The notes under the pieces are model-generated. The model did not search any database, had not been told where the DNA came from, and saw only the letters and a program-made list of their open reading frames with translations. From NCBI GenBank assembly GCA_017454945.1, contig JAFTCA010000010.1, positions 161,619-225,618 on the forward strand: a stretch of DNA of 64,000 nt. The letters run 5' to 3'. Position numbers and translations under genes: made by a program. Shown one piece after another: positions 2,202 to 51,705 of this stretch. The stretch is from Bacteroidales bacterium (GTDB lineage Bacteria; Bacteroidota; Bacteroidia; Bacteroidales; WCHB1-69). Position 1 is the first letter of the stretch, and the number at the start of each line of letters is the position of its first letter.

Positions 2202-2287
2202 CGAAAACAATTTATAATTAACAATGTATAATGTATAATTGAGGGGCGCTCGCTGAACTTGTCGAAGCGAGCGGTACAAGAATACAT

Positions 2288-3603: not shown

Positions 3604-3780
3604 GACTCCTTTCTACTTTAAGTTTGTATTCTATTTATTTTGAAAATTTTAGGGGTGCAAAAATACATTTTTTTTTGATACGCACAAACCCCTCTGCATT
3701 TTTTTCTTTTAATCAAATAGTACTAATGCGATATTTTTATTGTTTTAGGTTCATATTATATACGATTTTTTTGGTAACCA

Positions 3781-3788
3781 TATACTTG
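3781..3788 (+). promoter_or_regulatory. -7-like box TATACTTG for large ncRNA copy A
   Basis: Lies 2 nt upstream of the conserved 5' GGCAC. Copy B has the equivalent TATACATG at the same spacing. Confidence 0.5.
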
Positions 3789-3790
3789 AT

Positions 3791-4187
3791 GGCACAAAGT
3801 GTTTCGGGAACAAAACCTTTTAGTCTTGTCGATTCGCATTGTTGCACGAGTGTCTCTTTCGCGGCGATTAAGCATGTTGTTTCATATCGCATCCTCCCCG
3901 CGCCGCGAGGAGCGCACATGCCTTCCACCGCCCCACACAGCGCGCTACCGCGCTTGTGTGGAGTTATTGATAGGGTATCCCTACGGGATACTTCCACATA
4001 TGCCATGCGCATTTTTAAACCTCGTAGAGGTTCCCTCCCAATAACCCCAGATGAGCGTAGCGTAATCTGGGGTAGCGAGAAACATCATGATACTCACCGC
4101 GGCGCGCTATGAATGTTTTATGGAACACCAAACTTGGTCGCCGCGGAAGGGACTCAGTGCCAACAAGTATATAGTTCCCTTTTTTTT
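3791..4187 (+). ncRNA. Unassigned large structured RNA, copy A (~397 nt)
   Basis: Paralogous to 41776-42164. Long-range helices are 3791-3795/4157-4161, 3857-3867/4138-4148 and 3899-3907/4098-4106. Hairpins lie at 3933-3961, 3975-3991, 4018-4032 and 4045-4072. The 3' terminator is GGGACT...AGTTCCC plus T8. The ORFs here are short and not conserved between the copies. Confidence 0.75.
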
Positions 4188-4243
4188 ACTATTTTTGTCT
4201 CCTATAAAAGATAAACTCTTAACATTATTTATATCTGATAATT

Positions 4244-5296
4244 ATGATGAAATCAAAACAAATCTTCAGCCTTTTTGCCTTCGCTCTCTTCATCTTGTTC
4301 GCAGGCAATAGCTGCTCCCATCGCTCTTCCACTGATGCGGATACCACCACCGACAGCACCACTACGGCCTACGAACAGAGCTTGCTCATCCACCCCGAAG
4401 AGCTGAGCATCAAATGGATAGACCGCATGCACGCACTGGGCATCAACACCATCACAATGCACCCACGCGGCGGCCGCAACGCCTACAAAACGCTGGAAGA
4501 GATGCTGCAAATGCTCGAAACTGAGGAGTTTAGAGCAATGCTCGACCATGCAGACTCGCTAGGACTGAACATCGAATACGAATTTCACGCCGCCAGCTAC
4601 CTGATGCCCCGCGACCTCTACGAGAGCCACCCTGAATATTTCAGGATGAACGCCGACGGTCAGCGCGAACCGCTGCTCAACTTCTGCGTCTCAAACGAAG
4701 AAGCCCTCGACATTGTGGCCAAACGTGCCGTGGAATTGGCTAAAAAACTCTATAAAAGCACGCACCGCTACTATTTCTGGATGGACGACGTGAAAGAGAG
4801 CACTTGCCAATGCGAAAAATGCGCCCAACTTTCCGAATCGGACATGACGCTTCTGGTGATGAACCGCATTATCAAAGAATTGCGCAAAGAGATTCCCGAC
4901 GCCCAACTGGCCTATCTGGCCTACCATGGCGCCATGCCTACCCCCACGCAGGTCACCCCCGAAGAGGGTATCTTTGTGGAGTACGCCCCCATCGACAGAG
5001 ACTTGAAATGCCGCCTGCGCGAGAACAATCCCGACGAAGAAAACATCAAGGCCCTTCTCGACTTCTTTGGCAAAAAGAATGCCAAAGTGCTTGAATACTG
5101 GTTTGATAACTCAATGATGTCGAACTGGACCAAACCACCCAAACAGTTTGTCCCCGACAACGACCTGATTCGTGACGACATAGATTATTACCGTCAACTC
5201 GGCTTTAGCTACATATCCTCTTTTGCCTGCTTCCTCGGAGCCGACTATGAAGAGCTTTATGGCGAACCCGATGTGAGTGCCTTCAGCATGAAATAA
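4244..5296 (+). CDS. Lipoprotein, DUF4838-like / glycoside-hydrolase-like TIM-barrel protein
   Basis: Signal peptide with lipobox (FAGNSC). The family assignment is from memory of Bacteroidetes DUF4838 proteins and is uncertain. Confidence 0.6.
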   Translation: MMKSKQIFSLFAFALFILFAGNSCSHRSSTDADTTTDSTTTAYEQSLLIHPEELSIKWIDRMHALGINTITMHPRGGRNAYKTLEEMLQMLETEEFRAMLDHADSLGLNIEYEFHAASYLMPRDLYESHPEYFRMNADGQREPLLNFCVSNEEALDIVAKRAVELAKKLYKSTHRYYFWMDDVKESTCQCEKCAQLSESDMTLLVMNRIIKELRKEIPDAQLAYLAYHGAMPTPTQVTPEEGIFVEYAPIDRDLKCRLRENNPDEENIKALLDFFGKKNAKVLEYWFDNSMMSNWTKPPKQFVPDNDLIRDDIDYYRQLGFSYISSFACFLGADYEELYGEPDVSAFSMK

Positions 5297-5305
5297 TCTG
5301 ATACT

Positions 5306-5686
5306 ATGACACATACCGACAACATTTATTCTGGCACAATCATCAAAGGGCTCCAAAACGGACGCAAATTTGGATTCCCCACTGCCAACATCGAATTGGC
5401 CGAGGGACTGCTGCCGCCCGAAACAGGCATCTATGCTGTCAAAGTATGGCTCGAAAAACAATCTCTGTTCGGTATGCTCTATGTGGGCACACGCCCTACC
5501 TTGCAACTTGACAAACTCTCCATTGAAATACATCTTTTTAATTTTCAAGAAGATATTTATGGACAACAGTTGCAATTCGAGATTCTGAAAAAAATACGGG
5601 AAGAAAAAACTTTCGACTCACCACAACAACTTATTGACCAATTACGTTTAGACAAACAACACATTATCCGACTTTTGAATGAATAA
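5306..5686 (+). CDS. Monofunctional riboflavin kinase (RibF C-terminal-domain type)
   Basis: 126 aa with the GRKFGFPTANI motif and IEIHLFNFQEDIYG. There is no FAD-synthetase N-domain. Confidence 0.8.
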   Translation: MTHTDNIYSGTIIKGLQNGRKFGFPTANIELAEGLLPPETGIYAVKVWLEKQSLFGMLYVGTRPTLQLDKLSIEIHLFNFQEDIYGQQLQFEILKKIREEKTFDSPQQLIDQLRLDKQHIIRLLNE

Positions 5687-14987: not shown

Positions 14988-15117
14988 CCGCACGAAAAAG
15001 GACGGTGGACAAATTTGTAATGATTGCAACCACTTTAAAAAATGCTAAACCATTTCAAGTTTTCCCCTGCACCTTTCGTTAAACACCTAATTATCAACAA
15101 TAAAACTTTATTGTACT

Positions 15118-16401
15118 ATGAGTTATTTATTCACATCTGAATCAGTTTCGGAAGGTCATCCCGACAAAGTCAGCGACCAAATTTCTGACGGTTTACTTGA
15201 TGCTTTTCTGGCTCAGGACCCTGAGTCGAAGGTGGCTTGCGAGACTTTGGTGACTACAGGACTGGTAGTGTGCGCTGGGGAGGTCAACACCCACGGTTTT
15301 GTATCCATTGACGATGTTGCCCGAAAGATTATCACCAGGATCGGATATACCAAAAGCGACTATCAGTTTGATGCCAAGTCGTGCGCCGTCATTTCGTCTA
15401 TACACAACCAATCGTCGGACATCAACCAAGGGGTGGTGCGCCAAACTGCCGAGGAGCAGGGTGCCGGCGACCAGGGCATGATGTTCGGCTATGCATGCAA
15501 GGAGATGGACAACTTCATGCCCATCACTATTGAAATTGCCCACATCATTCTGCAAGAACTGGCGGCCATCCGCCGTGAAGGCAAGGTGATGACCTATCTG
15601 CGCCCTGATGCCAAGTCGCAGGTAACACTGCAATACTCTGATGACGGCAAGCCCGAACGTATTGACGCTTTGGTGGTTTCGACACAGCACGACGATTTTG
15701 ATGAAGAAGGCAAGATGCTGGCCAAAATCAAGGAAGACGTGCGCAACATTCTGTTGCCGAGAGTAATAGCACAATGCCCCGACAAGGTGAAGGTGCTTTT
15801 CAACTCCGACTTTAAGTTGCATGTCAACCCGACAGGCAAGTTTGTCATTGGCGGACCGCACGGCGACACGGGGCTCACGGGCCGCAAAATCATCGTGGAC
15901 ACCTACGGTGGCAAGGGAGCCCACGGCGGTGGCGCCTTCTCGGGCAAAGATCCGTCGAAGGTGGACCGCTCGGCGGCTTACGCTGCACGCCACATTGCCA
16001 AGAACATGGTGGCTGCCGGCCTTTGCGACGAGGTTCTGGTGCAAGTGGCTTACGCCATCGGCGTAGCCGAGCCTGTTGGCCTCTATGTCAACACCTACGG
16101 CACTGCCAAGGTGAACATGAGCGACGGCGAGATTGCCAAACGCATTTCCACCATTTTCGATATGCGTCCTTACGCCATCATCAAGCGGTTCAACCTCAAG
16201 AACCCTATCTACGAACCGACGGCATCGTATGGTCACTTTGGCCGCGACTGCTACGAAAAGGAAGTGGAAGTGTTCTATCAGGATGAAAACACCCGCACTG
16301 TCAATGAAAACGGCAAGGAGCGCCACTTCAAGAAAGTGACTTTCTTTGGCTGGGAAAAACTGGATTATGTAGATAAGATTAAAGAAAAATTTGGGTTGTA
16401 A
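15118..16401 (+). CDS. metK: S-adenosylmethionine synthetase
   Basis: [24 protein letters not shown]..., [21 protein letters not shown]. Confidence 0.98.
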
Positions 16402-18675: not shown

Positions 18676-18703
18676 AAAAATGGTAGCGTACCTTCGGTAC
18701 GCA
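18676..18703 (-). terminator. Possible murC terminator at the end of a hairpin-rich 3' region
   Basis: GCGTACC/GGTACGC stem (18686-18702). The U-run starts 5 nt after the stem, which is suboptimal. Confidence 0.35.
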
Positions 18704-18815
18704 AGCTTTGGTCTTTGCTACACTCCTCATACTGCGGCCTAACGGCCTTGTAAGGGGTTAATAGGAGATTGTGCCGATGGCACAAAAATTTCTTTTGTCG
18801 ATACTATCTCGTAGA

Positions 18816-20168
18816 TTAGCGCAGATTTTCCAACAGCGCTTTGATTTTCGGCACAAAGCGGTCGATGTTGCCAGCACCAATGGTGAGCAGCACTTCTGGG
18901 CGATTTATTTCCAGATAATCAAGCAGTTGCGAATCTTCTACCAGCACCTTATTTTCCACAGGGATCATATCAAGCAAATACTGCGAGGTGATGCCAGGGA
19001 TGGGCTTCTCGCGGGCGGGGTAGATGTTGAGCAGGATCACCTTGTCGAGCAGGGCGAGGGCCTCGGCAAACTGCGGGGCGAAGTCGCGGGTGCGCGAGAA
19101 GAGGTGCGGCTGGAAGATGCCCGTCAATTGTTTGTCGGGGTAGATGTTGCGCACCGCTTTAAGAAACGCTTTGATCTCTTCGGGGTGGTGAGCATAATCG
19201 TCGATATAGACCACATCATCGCGGACCACTTGGAAGTCGAAGCGCCGCTTGACACCGCTAAATTGGCTCAACTGACTTGAAATCAGTTCCGTGGGAAGTT
19301 TTGACAGCCATGCCACGGCAAAGGCGGCGGTAGCGTTCAGCACATTGTGCAAACCCGACACGCCCAGCTCCACATGGCGGCAAACATCGTCAGGACACCT
19401 GATGTCAAATTCGGCTTTGTGTGGCCACTGCTGAATGCGATGGGCGTAGAAGTCGGACGACGGCTCAAAGCCATAGACCATCTTGTGCGGATGGCTGATT
19501 TTGGCTGCCACTTTCTCGCACACCACCACGGCGCCGTCGCGATCCACCTGGTCGGCAAACTGCTGGAACGAAGCTTCCAGATTCTTCTTCTCGCCATAAA
19601 TGTCCAGATGGTCGGCATCCATCGAGGTGATGACCGCGATGGAAGGATAGAGTGTGAGGAACGAACGGTCGAACTCGTCGGCCTCCACGATGAAGGCCTC
19701 GGGATTGGACGAAAGCACCAGGTTGCTATCGAAATTCTTGGCAATGCCGCCAATGAAGGCCGTCACTGGCATGGCGGCGTGGAAAATTTGCGCCAGCATC
19801 GAGGTGGTGGTAGTTTTACCATGCGTGCCCGCTACAGCCAGCGTGCGATGCCCTTTGGTAATGATTCCCAGCACCTGTGAACGCTTGTAAATGGGAATAT
19901 TATTTTCTGTAAAAAATTGATATTCTGCGTGTTGTTTGCTTACAGCAGGTGTATAGACCACAAAATCAACGTGAGCAGGAATCTGGCTCACATCTTCGGT
20001 GAAATGCACATGCGCTCCTTCGGCCACGAGTTGGTCGATGAGCGGCGACGGTGTCAGGTCGTAACCGTAAACCTCATCACCGGCGTGCATAAAATAGCGA
20101 GCCAGCGCGCTCATGCCAATGCCACCTATACCAAGGAAATATATCGTTCTTTTCTGCTGCATAATCAA
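18816..20168 (-). CDS. murC: UDP-N-acetylmuramate--L-alanine ligase
   Basis: IYFLGIGGIGMSALARYF..., GTHGKTTTTSM, Mur ligase middle and C-terminal domains. Mpl was considered less likely given the N-terminal motif. Confidence 0.8.
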   Translation of the reverse strand: MIMQQKRTIYFLGIGGIGMSALARYFMHAGDEVYGYDLTPSPLIDQLVAEGAHVHFTEDVSQIPAHVDFVVYTPAVSKQHAEYQFFTENNIPIYKRSQVLGIITKGHRTLAVAGTHGKTTTTSMLAQIFHAAMPVTAFIGGIAKNFDSNLVLSSNPEAFIVEADEFDRSFLTLYPSIAVITSMDADHLDIYGEKKNLEASFQQFADQVDRDGAVVVCEKVAAKISHPHKMVYGFEPSSDFYAHRIQQWPHKAEFDIRCPDDVCRHVELGVSGLHNVLNATAAFAVAWLSKLPTELISSQLSQFSGVKRRFDFQVVRDDVVYIDDYAHHPEEIKAFLKAVRNIYPDKQLTGIFQPHLFSRTRDFAPQFAEALALLDKVILLNIYPAREKPIPGITSQYLLDMIPVENKVLVEDSQLLDYLEINRPEVLLTIGAGNIDRFVPKIKALLENLR

Positions 20169-20214: not shown

Positions 20215-20350
20215 CAGGGAGAAGTGAGGGGTGAGGAGTGAAAAGTTAAGAAACTAAGAAACTAAGGAGTTAAGAGTTATGGAATTATCGAATTATAGAA
20301 ATTTAATGTCTAATATCTAAAAACTAGAAACTAACAACTAATAACTAAAG
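20215..20350. repeat. Short-word intergenic array (AGTTAAGAA / ACTAAG / TTAT.GAA words)
   Basis: Shares the exact 19-mer agaaactaaggagttaaga (20257-20275) with 34831-34849, and is homologous in reverse complement to 31020-31070. Confidence 0.8.
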
Positions 20351-29363: not shown

Positions 29364-30833
29364 ATGAAATATTTCACACCTATAAAACTGTTTTTTTCAT
29401 TAATCTTCGGGATGATGACCATTGCCGCCACTGCACAAATATCGCCATTAGACTACGGTTTGCGCGACGCCACCACAGGCACTGAACGCTACAACGCTCT
29501 TTACAAAGTACATAGCGAGGCCATTTCACGTGGAACGACCGTGTCGTACGAAGGCATCCGACAGTTGGACATTGAGTTGCCGCCCGATTTCAAGAGCATC
29601 CCCGTTGGGCGCTACACCGACTTTGGCGGCGTGGTATTCTATGTCACCAACCGCAGTCGCCACGACGCCTTATTTGTGATGAACGACTGGGGCACGTCTG
29701 TTGACCTGCCCAAAGAGATGGTGGACGGCCGCGACTTTCGCTCGATTTCCGCATTGGCGGATGGGTATAAAATGTTGATATTAAACGATAAGCATCCGTG
29801 GACCGAGCGCCAGGGCTATGGATATCGTGTTTACCGTAAAGATATTCTGTTATTGCACAACGGACGAAGCGAAAGCGGCACCATTGCCCCGTGGAATACC
29901 GAAGCTACAGAATTGAGTGCCAGCTATATAAATATAGACACCGCACAAAAAGTATTCAAGGGACTCACGCTGCTACGGAGCAAGGAATCGACTTTCCGAA
30001 CCTACTGCCTTACGATGAACGGACAGTATAATGTGCTGATTGAAAATGTTTTAGTAAGTACACCAAGGAGTCGGATGATTGACGACCGCGTGTTTGGCGT
30101 GTACGACTGTATGCGCATCACCTTCCGCGATGTGCGCGTGGCCGGCACTTATTCGGGCTATGGCCGCTGGCGCGACTATGGTTACGCCTTCTCGATGAGC
30201 AACGTGCGCGATGCACGCTTTGAGCTGGTGAGCGCTGACGGCAACTGGGGTGTTTTCGGCACCAACAATCTGGCTAACACTACTTTGACAAGCTGCGACA
30301 TCAACCGCTTCGACATCCACTGCTATGGCCGCGACGCCCTGCTGGAGCGATGCACGCTGCGACAGCGCCAAACGCAGTTCTCGTCGATGTACGGCACCGT
30401 CACTTTCGACTCGTGCCGCTTTGTGGACTGCATACCCGTGCGCATCCGCTCGAGCTACAACGCCTACACTCCCTTCGATATTAAGATGTTGAACTGTACC
30501 TTCGAGCTGACACCACGCCACCACTCGTTAGTGAATGTCATGCTGCTTGACACAGCCGAAAACAGTCGTCCGGAGCTCAACACAAAGTGCTGGCCCAACC
30601 TGCAAGTCATTGGGATGAAGGTGATTGCGCCCCGAAATGTTCGTTCGCTGGACCTATTTGAACCGACGGGCACCCTCAGCGAACTGGACAAGCCTGTTGG
30701 CTATCTTAACCAAGTGACCGTCAAAGACTTGCAAATAATGCGCCCCAACGGGAAGGCCGCCGACATTCCCTGCCAGCTCTCAACCAAAGAGTTCAAGACG
30801 GTAACGGAGTTGCTATTTACAATTGATAATTAA
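29364..30833 (+). CDS. Secreted hypothetical protein (possible beta-helix fold)
   Basis: Signal peptide ...MMTIAATAQ. I recognise no family. The last codons (TIDN) are supplied by the intergenic word-repeat. Confidence 0.6.
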   Translation: MKYFTPIKLFFSLIFGMMTIAATAQISPLDYGLRDATTGTERYNALYKVHSEAISRGTTVSYEGIRQLDIELPPDFKSIPVGRYTDFGGVVFYVTNRSRHDALFVMNDWGTSVDLPKEMVDGRDFRSISALADGYKMLILNDKHPWTERQGYGYRVYRKDILLLHNGRSESGTIAPWNTEATELSASYINIDTAQKVFKGLTLLRSKESTFRTYCLTMNGQYNVLIENVLVSTPRSRMIDDRVFGVYDCMRITFRDVRVAGTYSGYGRWRDYGYAFSMSNVRDARFELVSADGNWGVFGTNNLANTTLTSCDINRFDIHCYGRDALLERCTLRQRQTQFSSMYGTVTFDSCRFVDCIPVRIRSSYNAYTPFDIKMLNCTFELTPRHHSLVNVMLLDTAENSRPELNTKCWPNLQVIGMKVIAPRNVRSLDLFEPTGTLSELDKPVGYLNQVTVKDLQIMRPNGKAADIPCQLSTKEFKTVTELLFTIDN

Positions 30834-31115
30834 CAATTTACAATTATTATCCGCGCAGATTCGTGGCAATTTATATCTCCGCGAATTACACGAATTAACA
30901 CGGAATAATTCTCCCGCAGATTTCGCAGATTAACGCAGATTTTTTCAATACAATATTCCCATTTCTTTCTCGTTATAATACTTTAGACTTTAGCAATTCC
31001 TTTTATCTATAACTCTATAACTCTATAATTCTTAACTCATTAGTTCCTAACTTCTTAACTATTCTTCACTCACTTCAACAGTTAAACATTTAAACAATCA
31101 ACACCTCAACAATCA
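30821..31115. repeat. Modular short-word intergenic array
   Basis: Module order is TTTACAATT-type words, then CGCAGATT-type words, then TATAACTC words, then CTTAACT words, then CACTCACTTC, then CAATCAACA words, then the gene start. Confidence 0.8.
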
Positions 31116-31125
31116 ACATACCATT

Positions 31126-32970
31126 ATGAGCACCTTAAAATCATGGTTTAAAAACCTTTTGGAAAACCTTAAGCAGGTTTTTATTCGTTATCCGTTGGCT
31201 TGCTTTTTTTCGCTGGCCATAACAGTTATGATTTCGTCTCTCATTATTGCCGAAGATATCAAAATGGAGGCTGTCTTTTTCAGTGTGATGTGGGGCTGCG
31301 GCTTGGCGGCCGTGCTGACTTTCGCCTTCGGACTTTTCTGCAAGCATCACGAAACCAAGTTGTGGCAACAGCTCACAGGCTATGGCGCGGCTGTCCTGCT
31401 GGCTGCTGGCGGCGGCTGGCTGTTCTTCCACTTTTACGGCAATGACGTTATTGGCTATTATGCCACCACGATGGTGTTTATCACACTGTTGGTACTTTTC
31501 TGGCTTCCTATGGCTGGCAAACGCAACATACAACTGACTTGGAACTACCACGCCCGTCTGGTGCTGTCGGGTATAGCAGCCGTAGTGCTGGGCTGTGTTG
31601 TAGCACTGAGCCTTAGCGGCATCCTCGGCTCCATCTATCTGCTTTTCAATGTGGAGACAGACAAACTACTGGAGGTCTTGCTGGCTGTCACCTACTGCTT
31701 TTTCACGCCGTGCTGCGCCATGGCCCTGATGCCCGTAGAACGCGAGGCATACGACCAGCCGCTGCAATACCAGAAATTCACCCGCATATTGGCACTGTAC
31801 ATCCTGCTGCCGCTCATCTGCATTGAAGGCATTATTTTATACATATATATGTTTAAGATATTGTTCCAGTGGCAATTGCCCGACGGTGGCGTTGCCTACC
31901 TTGTCTTCTCTTACGCCATCATCGGCTCGCTCATCTGGTACCTTCTTATGCCTGTCTATCTTTCCGAAGAGAAACAGTGGGCGCGCTTCTTCAACCGCAC
32001 TTTCTTCATCTCACTGCTACCGCTGTTAGGCTTGCTCTTCGTAGGCCTCTTCCGTCGCATTGGCGACTATGGTCTCACCACCAACCGCTATATCGTCTTC
32101 CTCGTGGCCTGCTGGTTTACCGTGATGGCTATCTTCATGGCGATTAAAAACACGAAGAATGTCCTGCCCTGGCTGATGTCGCTCACCGCTATCTCACTGC
32201 TGGTGATGTTCGGACCATGGAGTATGTTTGCCGTACCAAAAGTAATGCAAACGCGTCATTTTGAGAATATTACAACAGAATACAACCTACTCGTCGACAA
32301 TCATATAGTAGCACCGGCCGAGTCGCTGACCTTGGAGCAGAACATCGAACTGAGTGAGTCGCTCGACTTTTTCTTGGAAGAGCAAAACCGCTACGAATTC
32401 ACCGAACACTATTTTGGCCTCTCCAACGCCGAAACCGACTCGTTGGATGATGGTGGTTACTACGCATTACATAACAGACTGATGGAAAGAATGAAAGGCG
32501 AATATGTCCACGAAAGGGACCGCCGTCACCGCGAAGATGCGGAAGTAGAAGAGGTAGACCAAACTTACTCTTTCCGCCAGCATGTCGATACAAGACAGAT
32601 GTATCATATTTCGGGCTATGATTACAGTTTCTACTTGGATGAATGGAATAATGGGCTTAAGGAACATTGGTACGAAAACGATCCTATCCGCTTGAATATC
32701 AAGACCAATTTGGACAGCTCGGCGGTTATCACTTTCTCGTTTACCGACCACTCGTTCGACATCAACCCGATAGAGTCGTTAGGGTTGGCCAAGCGCATCG
32801 ACAACGGCTGCGATAACTACGGAAATCTGTTGCATAATCATGAAATAGTACACGAAGACAGCTATCTCAAACTCTATTTGGATGTTTTAGATATTCGTGT
32901 TTTAAGAGACTCAACAGGAACGGATTACCTTGACAATATTGAGTTCAGAGCGTTCTTGAAGAAGAAATAA
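31126..32970 (+). CDS. Polytopic membrane protein, DUF4153-like, with a soluble C-terminal domain
   Basis: About 10 TM helices over the first ~370 aa, followed by a hydrophilic domain. The family call is from memory. Confidence 0.6.
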   Translation: MSTLKSWFKNLLENLKQVFIRYPLACFFSLAITVMISSLIIAEDIKMEAVFFSVMWGCGLAAVLTFAFGLFCKHHETKLWQQLTGYGAAVLLAAGGGWLFFHFYGNDVIGYYATTMVFITLLVLFWLPMAGKRNIQLTWNYHARLVLSGIAAVVLGCVVALSLSGILGSIYLLFNVETDKLLEVLLAVTYCFFTPCCAMALMPVEREAYDQPLQYQKFTRILALYILLPLICIEGIILYIYMFKILFQWQLPDGGVAYLVFSYAIIGSLIWYLLMPVYLSEEKQWARFFNRTFFISLLPLLGLLFVGLFRRIGDYGLTTNRYIVFLVACWFTVMAIFMAIKNTKNVLPWLMSLTAISLLVMFGPWSMFAVPKVMQTRHFENITTEYNLLVDNHIVAPAESLTLEQNIELSESLDFFLEEQNRYEFTEHYFGLSNAETDSLDDGGYYALHNRLMERMKGEYVHERDRRHREDAEVEEVDQTYSFRQHVDTRQMYHISGYDYSFYLDEWNNGLKEHWYENDPIRLNIKTNLDSSAVITFSFTDHSFDINPIESLGLAKRIDNGCDNYGNLLHNHEIVHEDSYLKLYLDVLDIRVLRDSTGTDYLDNIEFRAFLKKK

Positions 32971-33147
32971 TTGATAATTAACAATTTATAATTTACAATT
33001 GATAATTATTTTCCGTGAAGATTCGTGTAATTCGCGGAAGAAAATGCTCCACGGATCTCGCGGATTTGCGCGGAGATATATTCCCGCAGATTGCGCGGAT
33101 TTGCGTGAAAAAGATTTCCGTGAAGATTCGTGTGATTCGCGGAGGTT
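32969..33147. repeat. Short-word intergenic array containing a pair of 30-bp direct repeats
   Basis: ttccgtgaagattcgtgt[a/g]attcgcgga[a/g]g occurs at 33011-33040 and 33116-33145. The 20-mer aattgataattaacaattta (32969-32988) is identical to 30821-30840. Confidence 0.8.
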
Positions 33148-34794: not shown

Positions 34795-34936
34795 GGGTTT
34801 AGGTTTAAAAGTTAAGAAGTTAAGAAGTTAAGAAACTAAGGAGTTAAGATTATATAAAGTGAATAAGTGAGGAGTTAAGATTATGTTCTTCTAATTGTAA
34901 ATTATTAATTGTCAATTGTAAATTATAAATTGTGAA
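34795..34936. repeat. Short-word intergenic array splitting the six-gene cluster
   Basis: Three tandem copies of (a)gttaagaa plus aactaaggagttaaga. Positions 34912-34933 are the exact reverse complement of 32981-33002 (22 nt). Confidence 0.8.
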
Positions 34937-36319
34937 TTACTCTATCGCCAAGTCCGCAATATTATCGGGGTTAAACTTATCGGTACCCCAAATCTGGTAG
35001 GCAATCTGCAGTGCTTCTTCGGTTGAGAGGCGGGCATTTTGTTCCAATATGCGTTGAATGAAGACGCAGCGCTTAATGTCGGTTTTTTCGCTACCCACGG
35101 CCAGCGAGAACTCCTTGCACGACTGGTAGCCGCACATACGGCAGTCGATTTGCGGCAGGTGCTTGTTGATAGAAATGGATTTCTCCATCTTGCGCATAGC
35201 CACGCTGATGTCATTGTCGAGCTTGTCCATAGAGCGCGGCTCCACCTTGCCTACCTTGCTGTGTTTATCTAAGTAGTCGGCATCGGCCAGCAAGCCGTTC
35301 TCCTTCACAGTCACTTCGGCGGGACTCTTCTCGGCTCTATATTTCTGTTTTTCAACGATAAGGAAGCGGTTGTTGGCGCAGAGGATGCCGCCAGCGCAAC
35401 TCTGGTCGCATGCGCGCAGTTCGAGGAAGTCGATATCGTCAATATCCTCATTTTCCAACTTCTCCAAGAATGTGGAAACGTTGTGCACATCGTCAATTGC
35501 CAAGTTACGACCTTTTTTCAGCAGGCTGATTTCACCGTCGGTCAGCGCCCACAGCAACGCATCTTTCGACAAGATGTTCATACGAAGATCGGCGGGTGGA
35601 GGTGGACAATCGCCCTGCTTGATACGACGCAATACTTTGTTATACAAGTAGTTCATATTGATAACGCCATCAATGGGCGACTTCTCATCACCCACAGGGC
35701 TTTTCACGGCAGCAATCTTGGCGGCGCAAGGAGCCACATAGAAAATGCCGATGTCTTCAGGAGCAACACCCTGTGTCTCAACAAGATGCTTTTTGATATA
35801 CAGGGCGGTCAAATCCAACGGCGGCTTGGTCAGCATCAGGTTGCCTACCAGCGAGGGAAACTTCACCTGTATCAATCGCACGATAGCGGGGCAGAACGAA
35901 GAGATGACGGGCATTCCCCTATCGGGATCTTGCATCTTCTTGGATAACAACTGCTTAATCACATCCACACTCTGTTCTACTTCATAAATATGTCGGAAGC
36001 CTAAATCGGCCACAGCGGCCACAATATCTTTTTCTTTAACTTTGTCAGGAAACTGCGATCCGAAAATGGAAGGGCATAGAAGCACAGGAACCTTATAGTT
36101 GTAAATCGTTTGGAAGTCGTCCTGTTCAATGTAGATAGCGTGCACGGGACAGGCCAGATAGCAATGGCCGCAGTCGATACAACGGTTATCGTCTAACACG
36201 GGGCGACCGTTTTCGATATGGATGGCGGCGGTAGGGCAGCACTCGGTGCAATGCGAGCAGCCTATGCACAAGTCATACTTGAATTTAAGGGCGTGATGAA
36301 ACGATTCTTGAGCTTCCAT
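34937..36319 (-). CDS. [FeFe]-hydrogenase-like Fe-S protein with degenerate H-cluster motifs (putative sensor)
   Basis: N-terminal 2x[4Fe-4S] (CIGCSHCTECCP, CIDCGHCYLACP). The hydrogenase large-subunit-like core carries SSFCPAIV, VAPCAAK and ACDQSCAGG in place of TSCCPxW, MPCxxKxxE and MxCxxGCxxG. The C-terminal CRMCGYQSCKEF...RCVF resembles the RnfB-type putative Fe-S domain. Confidence 0.75.
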   Translation of the reverse strand: MEAQESFHHALKFKYDLCIGCSHCTECCPTAAIHIENGRPVLDDNRCIDCGHCYLACPVHAIYIEQDDFQTIYNYKVPVLLCPSIFGSQFPDKVKEKDIVAAVADLGFRHIYEVEQSVDVIKQLLSKKMQDPDRGMPVISSFCPAIVRLIQVKFPSLVGNLMLTKPPLDLTALYIKKHLVETQGVAPEDIGIFYVAPCAAKIAAVKSPVGDEKSPIDGVINMNYLYNKVLRRIKQGDCPPPPADLRMNILSKDALLWALTDGEISLLKKGRNLAIDDVHNVSTFLEKLENEDIDDIDFLELRACDQSCAGGILCANNRFLIVEKQKYRAEKSPAEVTVKENGLLADADYLDKHSKVGKVEPRSMDKLDNDISVAMRKMEKSISINKHLPQIDCRMCGYQSCKEFSLAVGSEKTDIKRCVFIQRILEQNARLSTEEALQIAYQIWGTDKFNPDNIADLAIE

Positions 36320-41661: not shown

Positions 41662-41765
41662 GGATTGATTATAAGTTCAACTTGGAAAGTTATAAAAGAG
41701 GAGTTACAGAACCCCTGCAAATTAATGCGACAAACTTTTTTTAATTCCATTAATATTGGTAACTA

Positions 41766-41773
41766 TATACATG
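41766..41773 (+). promoter_or_regulatory. -7-like box TATACATG for large ncRNA copy B
   Basis: Same 2-nt spacing to the conserved GGCAC as in copy A. Confidence 0.5.
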
Positions 41774-41775
41774 AC

Positions 41776-42164
41776 GGCACAAAGTGTTTAGTAAACAATC
41801 TCTTTTAGTCTTGCCGATTCGCATTGTTGCAAGAGTGTCACTTTCGCGGCGAATAAACGACCGCATCATTGCACACATCTACCGCGCCGCGAGTAGGCTT
41901 GCGAATTTTCCATGTGTTCCCCACACTGACGTGTGGGGTTATTGATAGGGTGTCCCTACGGGACACTTTCACATGTGGTCATGCGCACATCTTTTCGACC
42001 TCGTAGAGGTCGTCTGTCAGTAACCCCAGATGAGCGTAGCGTAATCTGGGGTATGCGAAAGCCGCTCATACTCACCGCGGTGCGCTATGAAAGTTCAACG
42101 GAGCAATCAACTTGTTCGCCGCGGAAGGGATTCAGTGCCAACAGGAAAACAATCCCCCTTTTTT
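41776..42164 (+). ncRNA. Unassigned large structured RNA, copy B (~389 nt)
   Basis: Colinear with 3791-4187. Shares an identical 33-mer (42021-42053 = 4042-4074). Hairpins at 41919-41938, 41950-41966 and 41997-42011 carry compensatory changes. The terminator is GGGATT...AATCCC plus a T-run. Confidence 0.75.
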
Positions 42165-50505: not shown

Positions 50506-51705
50506 ATGAAACGAATCGCCCTTCTATCCATCTTAAGTTTCTATTTTCTAATAGGTTACGCCCAAATTCCTGAAGGCTATTACGATGCGGCTGTCGGATT
50601 AAAAGGCGATTCACTCAAGGAGGCGCTGCACAAAATCATCCAAAACCACGATACCATCAGCTACAAAGGGTTGTGGGGCTGCTATCCTTACACCGATGCC
50701 CGTCTTGACGACAACACCAAGGTGTGGGACATCTACTCGGATATTCCTGGCGGTACGCCGCCCTACCTCTATACTTTTATCACCGACCAATGCGGCAATT
50801 ATAGTGGCGAGAATTCCTGTTATAATCGCGAACATCTGGTGCCGCAAAGCTGGTTTGGCGATGCTTCGCCTATGGTTTCCGACTTGCAACACATCTATCC
50901 TACAGATGGTTTTGTAAATAATCGACGCGGCAACTATCCGTTTGCCGAGGTGGGCTCAACCACCTGGACCAGTCGGAACGGCTCTAAGTTAGGAGTCAGT
51001 ATCACACCTGGCTATTCGGGCACTGCTTTCGAGCCTATCGATGCCTTCAAAGGCGATATTGCCCGCGTATTCTTCTATATGGCAGTATGTTATATGGATA
51101 AGAATTTAGGACAAGAAGGCAACTCCATTTTCAACGGCTCCACCATGGACTCATGGGCGCTGACCATGTTCATCCGATGGCATAATCAGGACACAGTAAG
51201 CCAAAAAGAACATATCCGCAACCACGCCGCCGATTCGCTCCAGCATAACCGCAACCCGTTTATCGACTATCCCGAGCTGGTAGAGATGATTTTCGGTAGC
51301 CAGAAAGAGAAACGCTTCTATCCCAACGGCATTCCTGGTGACGACCCGGGTGATGATCCGGGCGATGACCCTGGTGATGACCCGGGTGATGATCCGGGCG
51401 ACGATCCTGGAGACTCCACCATGGTTCATAACTATGTCAACGAGATACATTTCGTGCTTTACCCCAATCCTGTCAGCGACCGCATCTATATCCGCAATTT
51501 GAGCGGCCAGGCCGTACAAATCACTGCTCTTTCAGTATTCGACCTGCAAGGCCGCCTGCTCTACATGGACCGACAGGTAAATAATCCGACTTGGGCACAC
51601 GAAAACATCCTGCCCATAGACTTCTCCACCTTCAAGCCAGGCTGCTATTTCGTCAAAATAGACACCCCAACAGGTGTGGAGACACACAAAGTAATGGTGA
51701 GATAA
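50506..51705 (+). CDS. Endonuclease I-family nuclease with a T9SS C-terminal sorting domain
   Basis: NREHLVPQSWF..., NPFIDYPE, a (PGDD)n linker, and the C-terminal YPNPVSDRIYI...GCYFVKI...HKVMVR. Confidence 0.85.
   Translation: MKRIALLSILSFYFLIGYAQIPEGYYDAAVGLKGDSLKEALHKIIQNHDTISYKGLWGCYPYTDARLDDNTKVWDIYSDIPGGTPPYLYTFITDQCGNYSGENSCYNREHLVPQSWFGDASPMVSDLQHIYPTDGFVNNRRGNYPFAEVGSTTWTSRNGSKLGVSITPGYSGTAFEPIDAFKGDIARVFFYMAVCYMDKNLGQEGNSIFNGSTMDSWALTMFIRWHNQDTVSQKEHIRNHAADSLQHNRNPFIDYPELVEMIFGSQKEKRFYPNGIPGDDPGDDPGDDPGDDPGDDPGDDPGDSTMVHNYVNEIHFVLYPNPVSDRIYIRNLSGQAVQITALSVFDLQGRLLYMDRQVNNPTWAHENILPIDFSTFKPGCYFVKIDTPTGVETHKVMVR
51337..51408 (+). repeat. Six 12-bp in-frame tandem repeats encoding (GDDP)6
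   Basis: GGTGACGACCCG GGTGATGATCCG GGCGATGACCCT GGTGATGACCCG GGTGATGATCCG GGCGACGATCCT. Confidence 0.95.

Follow-up and report, generated by a model that had tools for sequence, protein, structure and literature searches.

A 64-kb stretch of Bacteroidales DNA, referred to below as the window, carries two related elements in its intergenic spacers: copy A, between infC and a DUF4838 gene, and copy B, which follows tatC 38 kb away (Table 1). All of the sequence features that the initial annotation had listed for copy A were found at the positions it gave and are complementary as it claimed, and the second, diverged copy that it reported is real. Similarity between the two copies begins at TTGGTAAC and stops at the T-run. 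A third copy of this window type (copy C) lies at a third locus, in L034. With the covariance model R1, described below, five units were recognized in the window, including a degenerate solo unit laid out as a hairpin, the linker UCUCCUAUUAA, a second hairpin and a GAA-capped hairpin; the sole exact CTATTAACCCC of the window lies inside it. The elements are GC-rich, and the spacers around them are AT-rich.

Table 1. Features of the two window elements and of the solo unit (positions are those of the 64-kb window; bit scores refer to model R1)
Feature	Position	Strand	Remarks
Candidate Bacteroidetes -7 box, TTTTTTTG	3766..3773	+	Directly 5' of the conserved block of copy A; putative function
5' terminal inverted-repeat arm, 5' strand of P1, GGTAACCATATACTTGATGGCAC	3773..3795	+	Contains TATACTTG; complementary to 4157-4179 at 20/23 positions
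Promoter-like box, TATACTTG	3781-3788	+	Ends 2 nt before GGCAC; inside the terminal inverted repeat
GGCAC/GTGCC segments	3791-3795 and 4157-4161
Tail of minus-strand unit	3796..3853	-	Includes conserved CCTTTTAGTCTTG (reverse complement CAAGACTAAAAGG); nearly invariant in copies A, B and C
TTTCGCGGCGA/TCGCCGCGGAA complementary segments	3857-3867 and 4138-4148
Diverged B-type three-hairpin unit	3854..3993	-	70.8 bits, model positions 1-138
Hairpins of the B-type unit	Hc' 3858-3866/3901-3909; Hb' 3933-3961; Ha' 3975-3991		Plus-strand coordinates
CGCGCCGCG/CGCGGCGCG complementary segments	3899-3907 and 4098-4106
Head-to-head junction spacer	3994..4014		21 nt between unit 5' ends, from the coordinates of the two R1 matches
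Conserved A-type three-hairpin unit	4015..4151	+	121.5 bits
A-type Ha	4018-4032	+	GUA triloop
A-type Hb	4045-4072	+	Apex GCGUAGC, internal loop GA/GUA
A-type Hc	4097-4104/4139-4146	+
3' end	4149..4187	+	Local hairpin GGGACU...AGUUCCC, 18-nt loop, then U8
Separate box, TATTTTTG	4190-4197		After the T8 run
Degenerate solo unit	about 18684..18790	-	19 bits, E 0.005, filters off
Copy B -7-like box, TAATATTG	41751-41758		Position-equivalent to TTTTTTTG
Copy B of the dimer	41758..42164	+	84% identical to copy A over ~415 nt
Copy B minus-strand unit	41839-41968	-	66.9 bits
Copy B plus-strand unit	41994-42129	+	120 bits
Copy B 3' hairpin	42127-42158		Followed by T6 at 42159-42164

Each of the three window-type copies has a -7-like box at one end and a hairpin followed by a T6-T10 run at the other. 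The promoter box originally proposed for copy A is probably not a promoter element: it differs among the three copies (TATACTTG, TATACATG and TATACCTG), it lies inside the terminal helix, and where copy A differs from copy C in this box, the 3' arm carries a compensating change. The Bacteroidetes -7 promoter consensus is TAnnTTTG, and better candidates for it stand upstream, namely TTTTTTTG in copy A, TAATATTG in copy B and TATTTTTG in copy C, the last of which is a perfect TAnnTTTG; in the subfamily SF1, the -7-like box is poor. The separate box that had been noted downstream of copy A is present. Between copies A and C, the P1 arm shows one compensatory change (ATATACTTG/CAAGTATAT to ATATACCTG/CAGGTATAT), and in copy B the P1 pairing has decayed. 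In the 3' hairpin of copy A, GGGACT (4149-4154) pairs with AGTTCCC (4173-4179) ahead of the T8 run (4180-4187), so that the hairpin overlaps the 3' inverted-repeat arm; its stem covaries, copy B having GGGAUU/AAUCCC. Of the terminator claimed for this end, the hairpin and the T8 run are there, but a scan for canonical terminators makes no call for the 3' hairpins of copies A and B because their loops are 18-20 nt long.

The description of copy A as strongly structured, conserved, duplicated and noncoding was borne out. Its minimum free energy is -170 kcal/mol (z = -9.0 against shuffles), and the minus strand folds nearly as well (z = -7.0); for copy B, z is -5.8. Copies A and B have no ORF in common, indels disrupt every frame, and none of the ten ORFs overlapping the element had ever been called as a protein in the collection in which they were looked up. 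A coding reading was rejected because the frames are not common to the two copies. A possible mini-ORF, AUG CGG UAG, in the A-rich part of the conserved tail was likewise rejected as unconserved. The initial annotation could not name a family, and the Rfam scan agrees: neither copy reaches any family of Rfam 15 at gathering score, and over the whole window that threshold returned a SAM-II riboswitch elsewhere, which is unrelated, and nothing else. A permissive Rfam scan of copy A gave only noise. RNase P, tmRNA, SRP, 6S, group II introns and riboswitches went unmatched in E-value scans of both copies and one SF1 copy.

What had been taken for the architecture of a single, ribozyme-like RNA turned out to be a duplication, the 5' half of the element being a diverged reverse-complement copy of the 3' half. 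Among relatives, wide conservation is limited to the 3' half, which has a core of about 138 nt, and R1 is a covariance model of this core with its hairpins Ha, Hb and Hc. Ha is a 7-bp hairpin with a triloop and is followed by the AU-rich linker AUCUUAUUAA. Hb has the form CCCCAGAU-GA-GC-GUA-GC-GUA-AUCUGGGG; after a spacer of about 28 nt comes Hc, with the closing helix CCGCGGYG/CRCCGCGG, and a unit usually carries a tail of about 40-80 nt after the three hairpins. R1 also matches the 5' half of copy A, on the minus strand (E 2e-14 to 2.8e-15), and the minus-strand matches in copies A and B span the full model with the hairpin order unchanged. Since R1 matches both halves on opposite strands, each element is a head-to-head inverted dimer: copies A and B consist of two diverged units of one building block of about 138 nt. 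The minus-strand unit of copy A shows compensatory changes relative to copy B.

Opposite-strand pairs of R1 matches also occur in copy C and in SF1 (L009, L019, L020, L040 and L042), as well as in L022 and L045, where the minus-strand partner is weak (29.4 bits). The 5' ends of the two units are 3-25 nt apart in the window copies, L034 and SF1; SF1 has a spacer of 3 nt, and L017 one of 179 nt. Within every dimer, one unit is strongly conserved and its partner diverged (120-150 versus 29-88 bits), and the A-type unit is near-invariant across subfamilies. The terminal inverted repeats are supplied by the tails of the two inverted units. They are present only in L009, L020/L042 and copies A and C (25/25 in L009:83-516, 20/23 in copy A and 18/20 in copy C), and most subfamilies are without them. 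The 25-bp perfect repeats of L009:83-516 are formed by the CCTTTTAGTCTTG/CAAGACTAAAAGG motif, a terminal motif common to units of other subfamilies. Conservation is strongest in the internal hairpins and weaker at the termini.

The dimer model bears directly on the nested long-range helices of the initial annotation, which were not upheld. Its two long GC helices join Hc strands of one unit to Hc strands of the other. In an alignment of nine full-length elements (A8), these helices are 85.6% paired with 0 compensatory changes, which is no better than shuffles, whereas the two alternative local hairpins are 97.4% paired, with 3 covarying pairs and 7 compensated cells. In four SF1 copies, a G-C pair has become U-A; the local pair is kept, and the long-range alternative would contain U·C and A·G mismatches. 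The long-range GC helices are a by-product of the inverted duplication, and copy A does not have the makeup of one large RNA folded by nested long-range helices. An inverted duplication can thus mimic a large ribozyme-like fold of this kind. The four enclosed hairpins (Hb', Ha', Ha and Hb), on the other hand, were confirmed by covariation in relatives. In an alignment of 53 distinct units of the family (A9), 20 of the 25 pairs covary, 190 cells are compensated and 97.6% of cells are paired, measures that 0 of 500 shuffles reached. The covariation indicates that the local hairpins are under selection.

Further members of the family were found in rumen Bacteroidales, a host group that is uncultured and poorly annotated. 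Neither blastn with copy A against plasmid and phage collections, nor exact-pattern scans of viral contigs, nor a metagenome scan with a copy-specific 21-base pattern gave a match. A degenerate DNA probe derived from a pseudo-protein alignment of one reading frame of copies A and B detected 20 loci spread over nine genomes of rumen Bacteroidales, each draft having 1-4 A-type loci when counted with a strict pattern, and a metagenome scan with the conserved hairpin added 21 further loci. In 36 sources, comprising the window and loci from rumen Bacteroidales genomes and metagenome contigs, R1 gave 55 matches at E <= 1e-9; at E < 0.01, it gave 113 in 472 kb. Units occur solo, in tandem (L023 and L016), as inverted dimers and in arrays, and in both orientations. 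For example, an array of Ha-linker-Hb modules in both orientations lies beside a tRNA gene in L031 (4400-4800).

No common function links the genes that adjoin the units. Some are core or housekeeping genes (infC, tatC, UvrC, DNA ligase, arginase and lipoamide dehydrogenase), others serve surface structures, transport and sugar metabolism (DUF4838, PorP, fucosidase and aldose epimerase), and a third set consists of likely accessory, toxin or defense genes (Fic, KilA-N, NERD, a PglZ regulator and an AbiL-like pair). At one locus, the downstream gene is a 131-aa ORF that matches nothing in Pfam, and a NuoF-like subunit (Complex1_51K domain) comes after it. A-type units mostly share the orientation of the downstream gene, whose TAnnTTTG box is usually found 40-110 nt past the element. 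One locus, downstream of an ATP-grasp gene, is kept in eight contigs, and the unit there equals the neighboring coding DNA in conservation, which speaks against simple selfishness. The gene after the unit at this locus alternates, being either a Fic gene or an AbiL-like pair.

Both window loci lack the element in close relatives, among them ones with 85-89% protein identity. Copy A is absent between infC and the DUF4838 gene in L001-L004, where the neighboring protein is 73-89% identical; the infC-DUF4838 spacer is at most 365 nt in L001, L002 and L004, and in L003 the locus holds an extra gene and no element. Copy B is absent after tatC in L051/L052 and L054/L055 (87-89% identical), with a tatC spacer of 252 or 140 nt versus 689 nt in the window. 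A clean empty site was found at neither locus in the relatives compared. Short contigs of near-identical strains end within the element, as repeats cause such breaks, and the repeat module explains contig breaks in rumen Bacteroidales metagenomes.

Genes that might mobilize the units were sought around them. No transposase or RAYT-like gene was found among about 50 neighboring ORFs scanned with Pfam, and among 330 ORFs from 50 loci, no recurrent transposase cluster emerged, only syntenic housekeeping clusters. A cognate RAYT (Y1 HUH transposase) was found neither in the neighboring ORFs of 57 loci nor among the scanned ORFs of the window, and a related insertion sequence neither in about 500 kb of loci nor in the plasmid and phage collections. 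Identical 8-mers flank the elements in L009 (ATTTCTTT) and L020 (TTTTCTTT), and T7/T8 runs flank copy A. The 8-mers of L009 and L020 are T-rich and could be promoter or terminator sequence. They were first taken as target duplications, but further copies showed a U-run at every 3' flank and no duplication for copy C, which reduced this reading to a possibility. No unambiguous target-site duplication was found.

Whether the hairpins act as RNA or as single-stranded DNA (ssDNA) can be approached through their loops and pairs. The Ha triloop is GNA in 50 of 53 units, and the Hb apex is GCG(U/C/A)AGC or c(GNNA)g; the rule for the family is a c(GNA)g or c(GNNA)g loop in each unit's own orientation. 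In the minus-strand partners, the GNA/GNNA loops are kept on the partner's own strand and not on the one presumed to be RNA. GCGNAGC and GCGNNAGC form extraordinarily stable DNA mini-hairpins, the RNA versions of which are far less stable, and mini-hairpins of this kind occur at ssDNA replication-initiation sites (PMC13037366). The GCGNAGC-type loop rule offers a concrete handle on the question. The pairs in the strong units comprise 970 Watson-Crick, 9 G·U, 7 A·C and 14 other combinations; G·U makes up about 1% of pairs and is no commoner there than A·C or other mismatches. A strand test of G·U against A·C (9 versus 7 in strong units and 7 versus 2 in diverged ones) is too weak to decide within this family. 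The loops in unit orientation and the rarity of G·U lean toward ssDNA or a strand-symmetric repeat. The promoter- and terminator-like boundaries, the polarity of the dimer and the co-orientation with the downstream gene lean toward RNA, and the GA/GUA internal loop of Hb, possibly loop-E-like, may lean the same way.

Among known families, the nearest is Acido-Lenti-1 (RF01687), at a sub-threshold score. The best match scores 29.6 bits, where the gathering score is 37, with E about 2e-5 to 8e-5 in small searches. It lies in the minus-strand unit of copy B, read on the plus strand at 41919-41965, covers model positions 1-46 and has only standard pairs; two L031 modules score 28.2 bits each, and no match to RF01687 was found in copy A or in A-type units. 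Acido-Lenti-1 is a two-hairpin motif of Acidobacteria, Lentisphaerae and soil, multi-copy and often tandem, with no gene association and of unknown function (Weinberg et al. 2010, PMC2864571). The units here share with it two hairpins joined by an AU-rich linker of about 11-12 nt, one with an 8-bp stem and tetraloop and the other with a 5-7-bp stem and triloop, and both are multi-copy and often tandem, with unrelated gene neighbors. However, the A-type unit goes beyond the 46-nt Acido-Lenti-1 model: its Hb is longer and has an internal loop, and it also has Hc and a tail. Rumen Bacteroidales are not among the taxa of Acido-Lenti-1, and inverted dimers have not been described for it. The likeness could reflect either homology or convergence. 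Read in its annotated orientation, the RF01687 seed has 37 A·C versus 8 G·U pairs; reading it on the reverse strand gives loops of the types GNRA/GNNA (GUGA 23, GUAA 14) and GNA (GAA in 39 of 69). The reverse orientation has exactly the Ha-linker-Hb architecture and direction of the units here, which suggests that the strand given in Rfam is probably reversed.

In behavior, the units come closest to REP, REPIN and BIME elements, which RAYT transposases mobilize. A REPIN consists of two inverted REPs and a spacer and is mobilized in trans (PMC3337134), and REPs, REPINs and BIMEs are described as non-autonomous and vertically persistent, with a proposed role as ssDNA or RNA hairpins (PMC3337134, PMC2817692, PMC3733652). 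Like them, the units here are intergenic palindromic sequences that occur singly, as inverted pairs with short spacers and in mosaic clusters, with hairpins kept by compensatory change. They differ in several respects. A REP unit has 20-40 nt and one hairpin, whereas the unit here has 138 nt and three; REPs number tens to hundreds per genome, while copy number here is apparently low (1-4 A-type loci by a strict pattern, with many weaker matches). A RAYT gene is typically flanked by REPs, but none was found near the units, and the GTAG/CGTC tag of REPs is not conserved in A-type units.

Modular, MITE-like intergenic repeats of 100-400 nt are also known as BOX in Streptococcus pneumoniae and as Correia and ERIC elsewhere. 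They vary in the number and order of their sub-modules, form stable stem-loops, are often co-transcribed with their neighbors and have no transposase of their own. They exist as tens to hundreds of near-identical copies, whereas the copies here are few, diverged and strongly covarying, and their sequences are unrelated. In size range and in being GC-rich structure within AT-rich spacers, the elements resemble ROOL, which was first seen in rumen data (PMC12286853), GOLLD, OLE and the HEARO/IscB omega RNA. However, these ornate RNAs are multi-junction folds, and the elements here are an inverted duplication of simple hairpins. The Rfam models of ROOL, GOLLD, OLE and HEARO gave no match even at E <= 10, and no IscB or TnpB gene was found beside the elements.

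We tentatively favor, at slightly less than an even chance, the reading that copies A (3773-4187) and B are REPIN- or BIME-like inverted dimers of a new, lineage-restricted family of modular repeats in rumen Bacteroidales. The dimer architecture is what resembles a REPIN or BIME; the units are far larger. They are possibly transcribed. In the proposed mechanism, the hairpins would function in a single-stranded form of the unit strand, which could be ssDNA exposed by replication or transposition, or else a transcript, and a structure-specific, trans-acting protein encoded elsewhere in the genome would recognize them; we infer that the copies spread because of this recognition. Once resident, a hairpin cluster with its U-run, typically 40-110 nt upstream of the TAnnTTTG promoter of the next gene, would probably also stop or insulate transcription and give RNAs an end that resists nucleases. 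The 138-nt module, with 20 of 25 pairs covarying, makes a solid new entry for catalogues of RNAs and of repeats.

The main alternative, a genuine multi-copy gene for a structured noncoding RNA, has a substantial though smaller chance of being right. Such a gene would yield a plus-strand transcript of about 400 nt running from the upstream -7-like box to the 3' hairpin and U-run. The A-type unit, with its invariant Hb and the loop-E-like GA/GUA internal loop of that hairpin, would be its functional, protein-binding 3' domain, and the 5' domain an ancient inverted duplicate, now a scaffold, with P1 joining the ends. TAnnTTTG-like boxes and hairpins with T6-T10 runs do delimit the block in the three window-type copies, and comparison of the copies reveals one compensatory change in P1 and another in the terminal hairpin. 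The polarity of the dimer, with a near-invariant A-type unit and a diverging partner, fits a directional transcript. The retention of one locus at an orthologous position (ATP-grasp), the GC-rich composition of elements in AT-rich spacers and the prevailing orientation of A-type units with the downstream gene point the same way, as does the Acido-Lenti-1 seed, which in unit orientation shows GNRA-type loops and an excess of G·U. However, a single plus-strand transcript does not account for the GNA/GNNA loops that the minus-strand partner keeps on its own strand, or for units that occur solo, in tandem arrays and with spacers of 3-179 nt. The low share of G·U pairs, with no excess over other mismatches in strong units, also argues against it, as do the absence of the element from both window loci in close relatives, the poor -7-like box of SF1 and the non-canonical terminators.

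The remaining explanations account for parts of the evidence. A classical MITE, derived from a DDE insertion sequence and moved by cut-and-paste with 8-bp target duplications in T-rich DNA, is improbable. The terminal inverted repeats of L009:83-516, copy A and copy C would suit it, as would the identical flanking 8-mers of L009 and L020 and the T7/T8 runs around copy A. Yet most subfamilies have no terminal repeats, those that exist are unit tails, and conservation peaks in the internal hairpins, not at the termini; moreover, covarying hairpins are unexpected in binding sites for a DDE transposase, copy C has no duplication, and no related insertion sequence turned up in about 500 kb of loci or in the plasmids and phages searched. 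That most copies stand upstream of a co-oriented gene would be expected of a cis-regulatory leader or riboswitch-like element, which we regard as very improbable: the downstream genes are unrelated in function (DUF4838, Fic, AbiL-like, fucosidase, PglZ regulator, PorP, aldose epimerase), and a hairpin with a U-run, and usually a canonical TAnnTTTG promoter, stand between element and gene. A cis-regulatory role was rejected on this diversity of neighbors. A chance palindrome, an assembly artifact or a small protein gene can be practically dismissed. A 162-aa ORF with a TTG start does span 3624-4112, but the ORFs are not conserved between copies and were never called; folding at z = -9 against shuffles, 55 homologues with 190 compensated cells, and the recurrence of the same element in independent assemblies do not fit chance or artifact.

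A broader, rather unlikely interpretation would join the unit and Acido-Lenti-1 in one widespread and so far unrecognized superfamily of self-propagating, strand-specific modules with c(GNA)g/c(GNRA)g caps. The dimers would then be either stable RNAs with a protein partner of their own or mobilized as ssDNA, and the Rfam strand would be reversed. In rumen Bacteroidales, such modules would have been assembled into pseudo-symmetric dimers of about 400 nt. If the link to Acido-Lenti-1 is true, a motif that stands alone in Rfam would have kin in a further phylum, and it would receive a probable correction of its strand and a testable interpretation as a repeat element. The strand asymmetry of the RF01687 seed (37 versus 8) is explicable by RNA and also by strand-specific ssDNA.

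Read in its annotated orientation, the seed of Acido-Lenti-1 (RF01687), the Rfam family nearest to the three-hairpin unit, contains 37 A·C pairs versus 8 G·U pairs, and GNRA and GNA loops are found on its reverse strand (PMC2864571, supplementary file 183). From the composition of the seed, the family is probably annotated in Rfam on the wrong strand. The family also behaves like a tandem or dispersed repeat.

The window holds a degenerate solo copy of the unit, which lies in the spacer upstream of a minus-strand ORF (18816-20168) and comprises three hairpins: the linker UCUCCUAUUAA separates the first two, and the last one is GAA-capped. Near-identical strains from other samples have contigs that end within copy A or copy B, the two inverted unit dimers: two (L046 and L047) start 88 nt ahead of the DUF4838 gene, and one (L050) ends 177 nt past tatC. 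Such ends are consistent with repeat-induced assembly breaks. A relative without copy A (L001) carries, at the equivalent place, the segment ACAAGGAAACAGGTTGAATCCGTTATTTTTT, which is similar to copy B's 3'-terminal sequence, ACAGGAAAACAATCCCCCTTTTTT, and, judged by that similarity, could be left over from deletion of the element.

Features in the window and in related loci, with coordinates (R1, covariance model of the unit core)
Feature	Location	Strand or orientation	Remarks
Degenerate solo unit	window 18684-18790	-	R1, 19 bits
SAM-II riboswitch, long-loop type (RF01726)	window 14999-15058	+	52.7 bits vs gathering score 44
AT-rich ~34-nt motif AATTGATAATTAACAATTTATAATT	window 2205-2242, 30815-30854, 32965-33016, 34892-34939	direct and inverted	
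8-nt-period short arrays, AAGTTAAG / AAACTAAG	window 20243-20283, 34801-34880		intergenic
Small repeat family TCCGCGAATTACACGAATTAACACGGAA	window 30877-30931, 33010-33038, 33047-33101, 33115-33143	direct and inverted	
12-nt periodic repeat CCNGGTGATGAC	window 51322-51417	+	within ORF 50506-51705
Segment ACAAGGAAACAGGTTGAATCCGTTATTTTTT	L001 5930-5975		
Candidate promoter box TATCTTTG and A-rich tandem repeats AAAAACTAATAATAGTAAAACG	L005 ~5290-5420; L009 ~5200-5400; L010; L030; L038; L044		3' of conserved copy
GTAG-tagged REP-like palindromes	L008 ~2780-2830, ~4880-4930; L011 ~4920-4945; L012; L013; L031 ~4925-4950		

At six loci, the copy conserved downstream of an ATP-grasp gene is followed by the candidate box, then by two to five tandem copies of a 22-24-nt A-rich repeat (AAAAACTAATAATAGTAAAACG), and then by the variable gene, a Fic gene in some cases and an AbiL-like pair (AAA_21 and RloB) in others. 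Canonical GTAG-tagged REP-like palindromes (e.g., TTGTAGGGACGCGATTCATCGCGTCC) share spacers with units at five loci, and because of this, the genomes concerned carry ordinary REP-type repeats as well.

Smaller repeats also recur in the window. Two arms of the AT-rich motif (32975-33008 and 34906-34939), 94% complementary and separated by 1897 nt, flank a pair of ORFs on the minus strand that carry HATPase_c and PHP domains; arms and ORFs together could represent an invertible or mobile segment, or the arms a shared regulatory site. Copies of TCCGCGAATTACACGAATTAACACGGAA cluster close to the AT-rich repeats, and the two sites of 8-nt-period arrays lie 14.5 kb apart. The 12-nt repeat would encode a Pro-Gly-Asp-Asp repeat in the predicted product. 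The sole match at gathering threshold in an Rfam scan of the whole window was the SAM-II riboswitch, and a 427-aa ORF (15118-16401) begins ~60 nt downstream of it.
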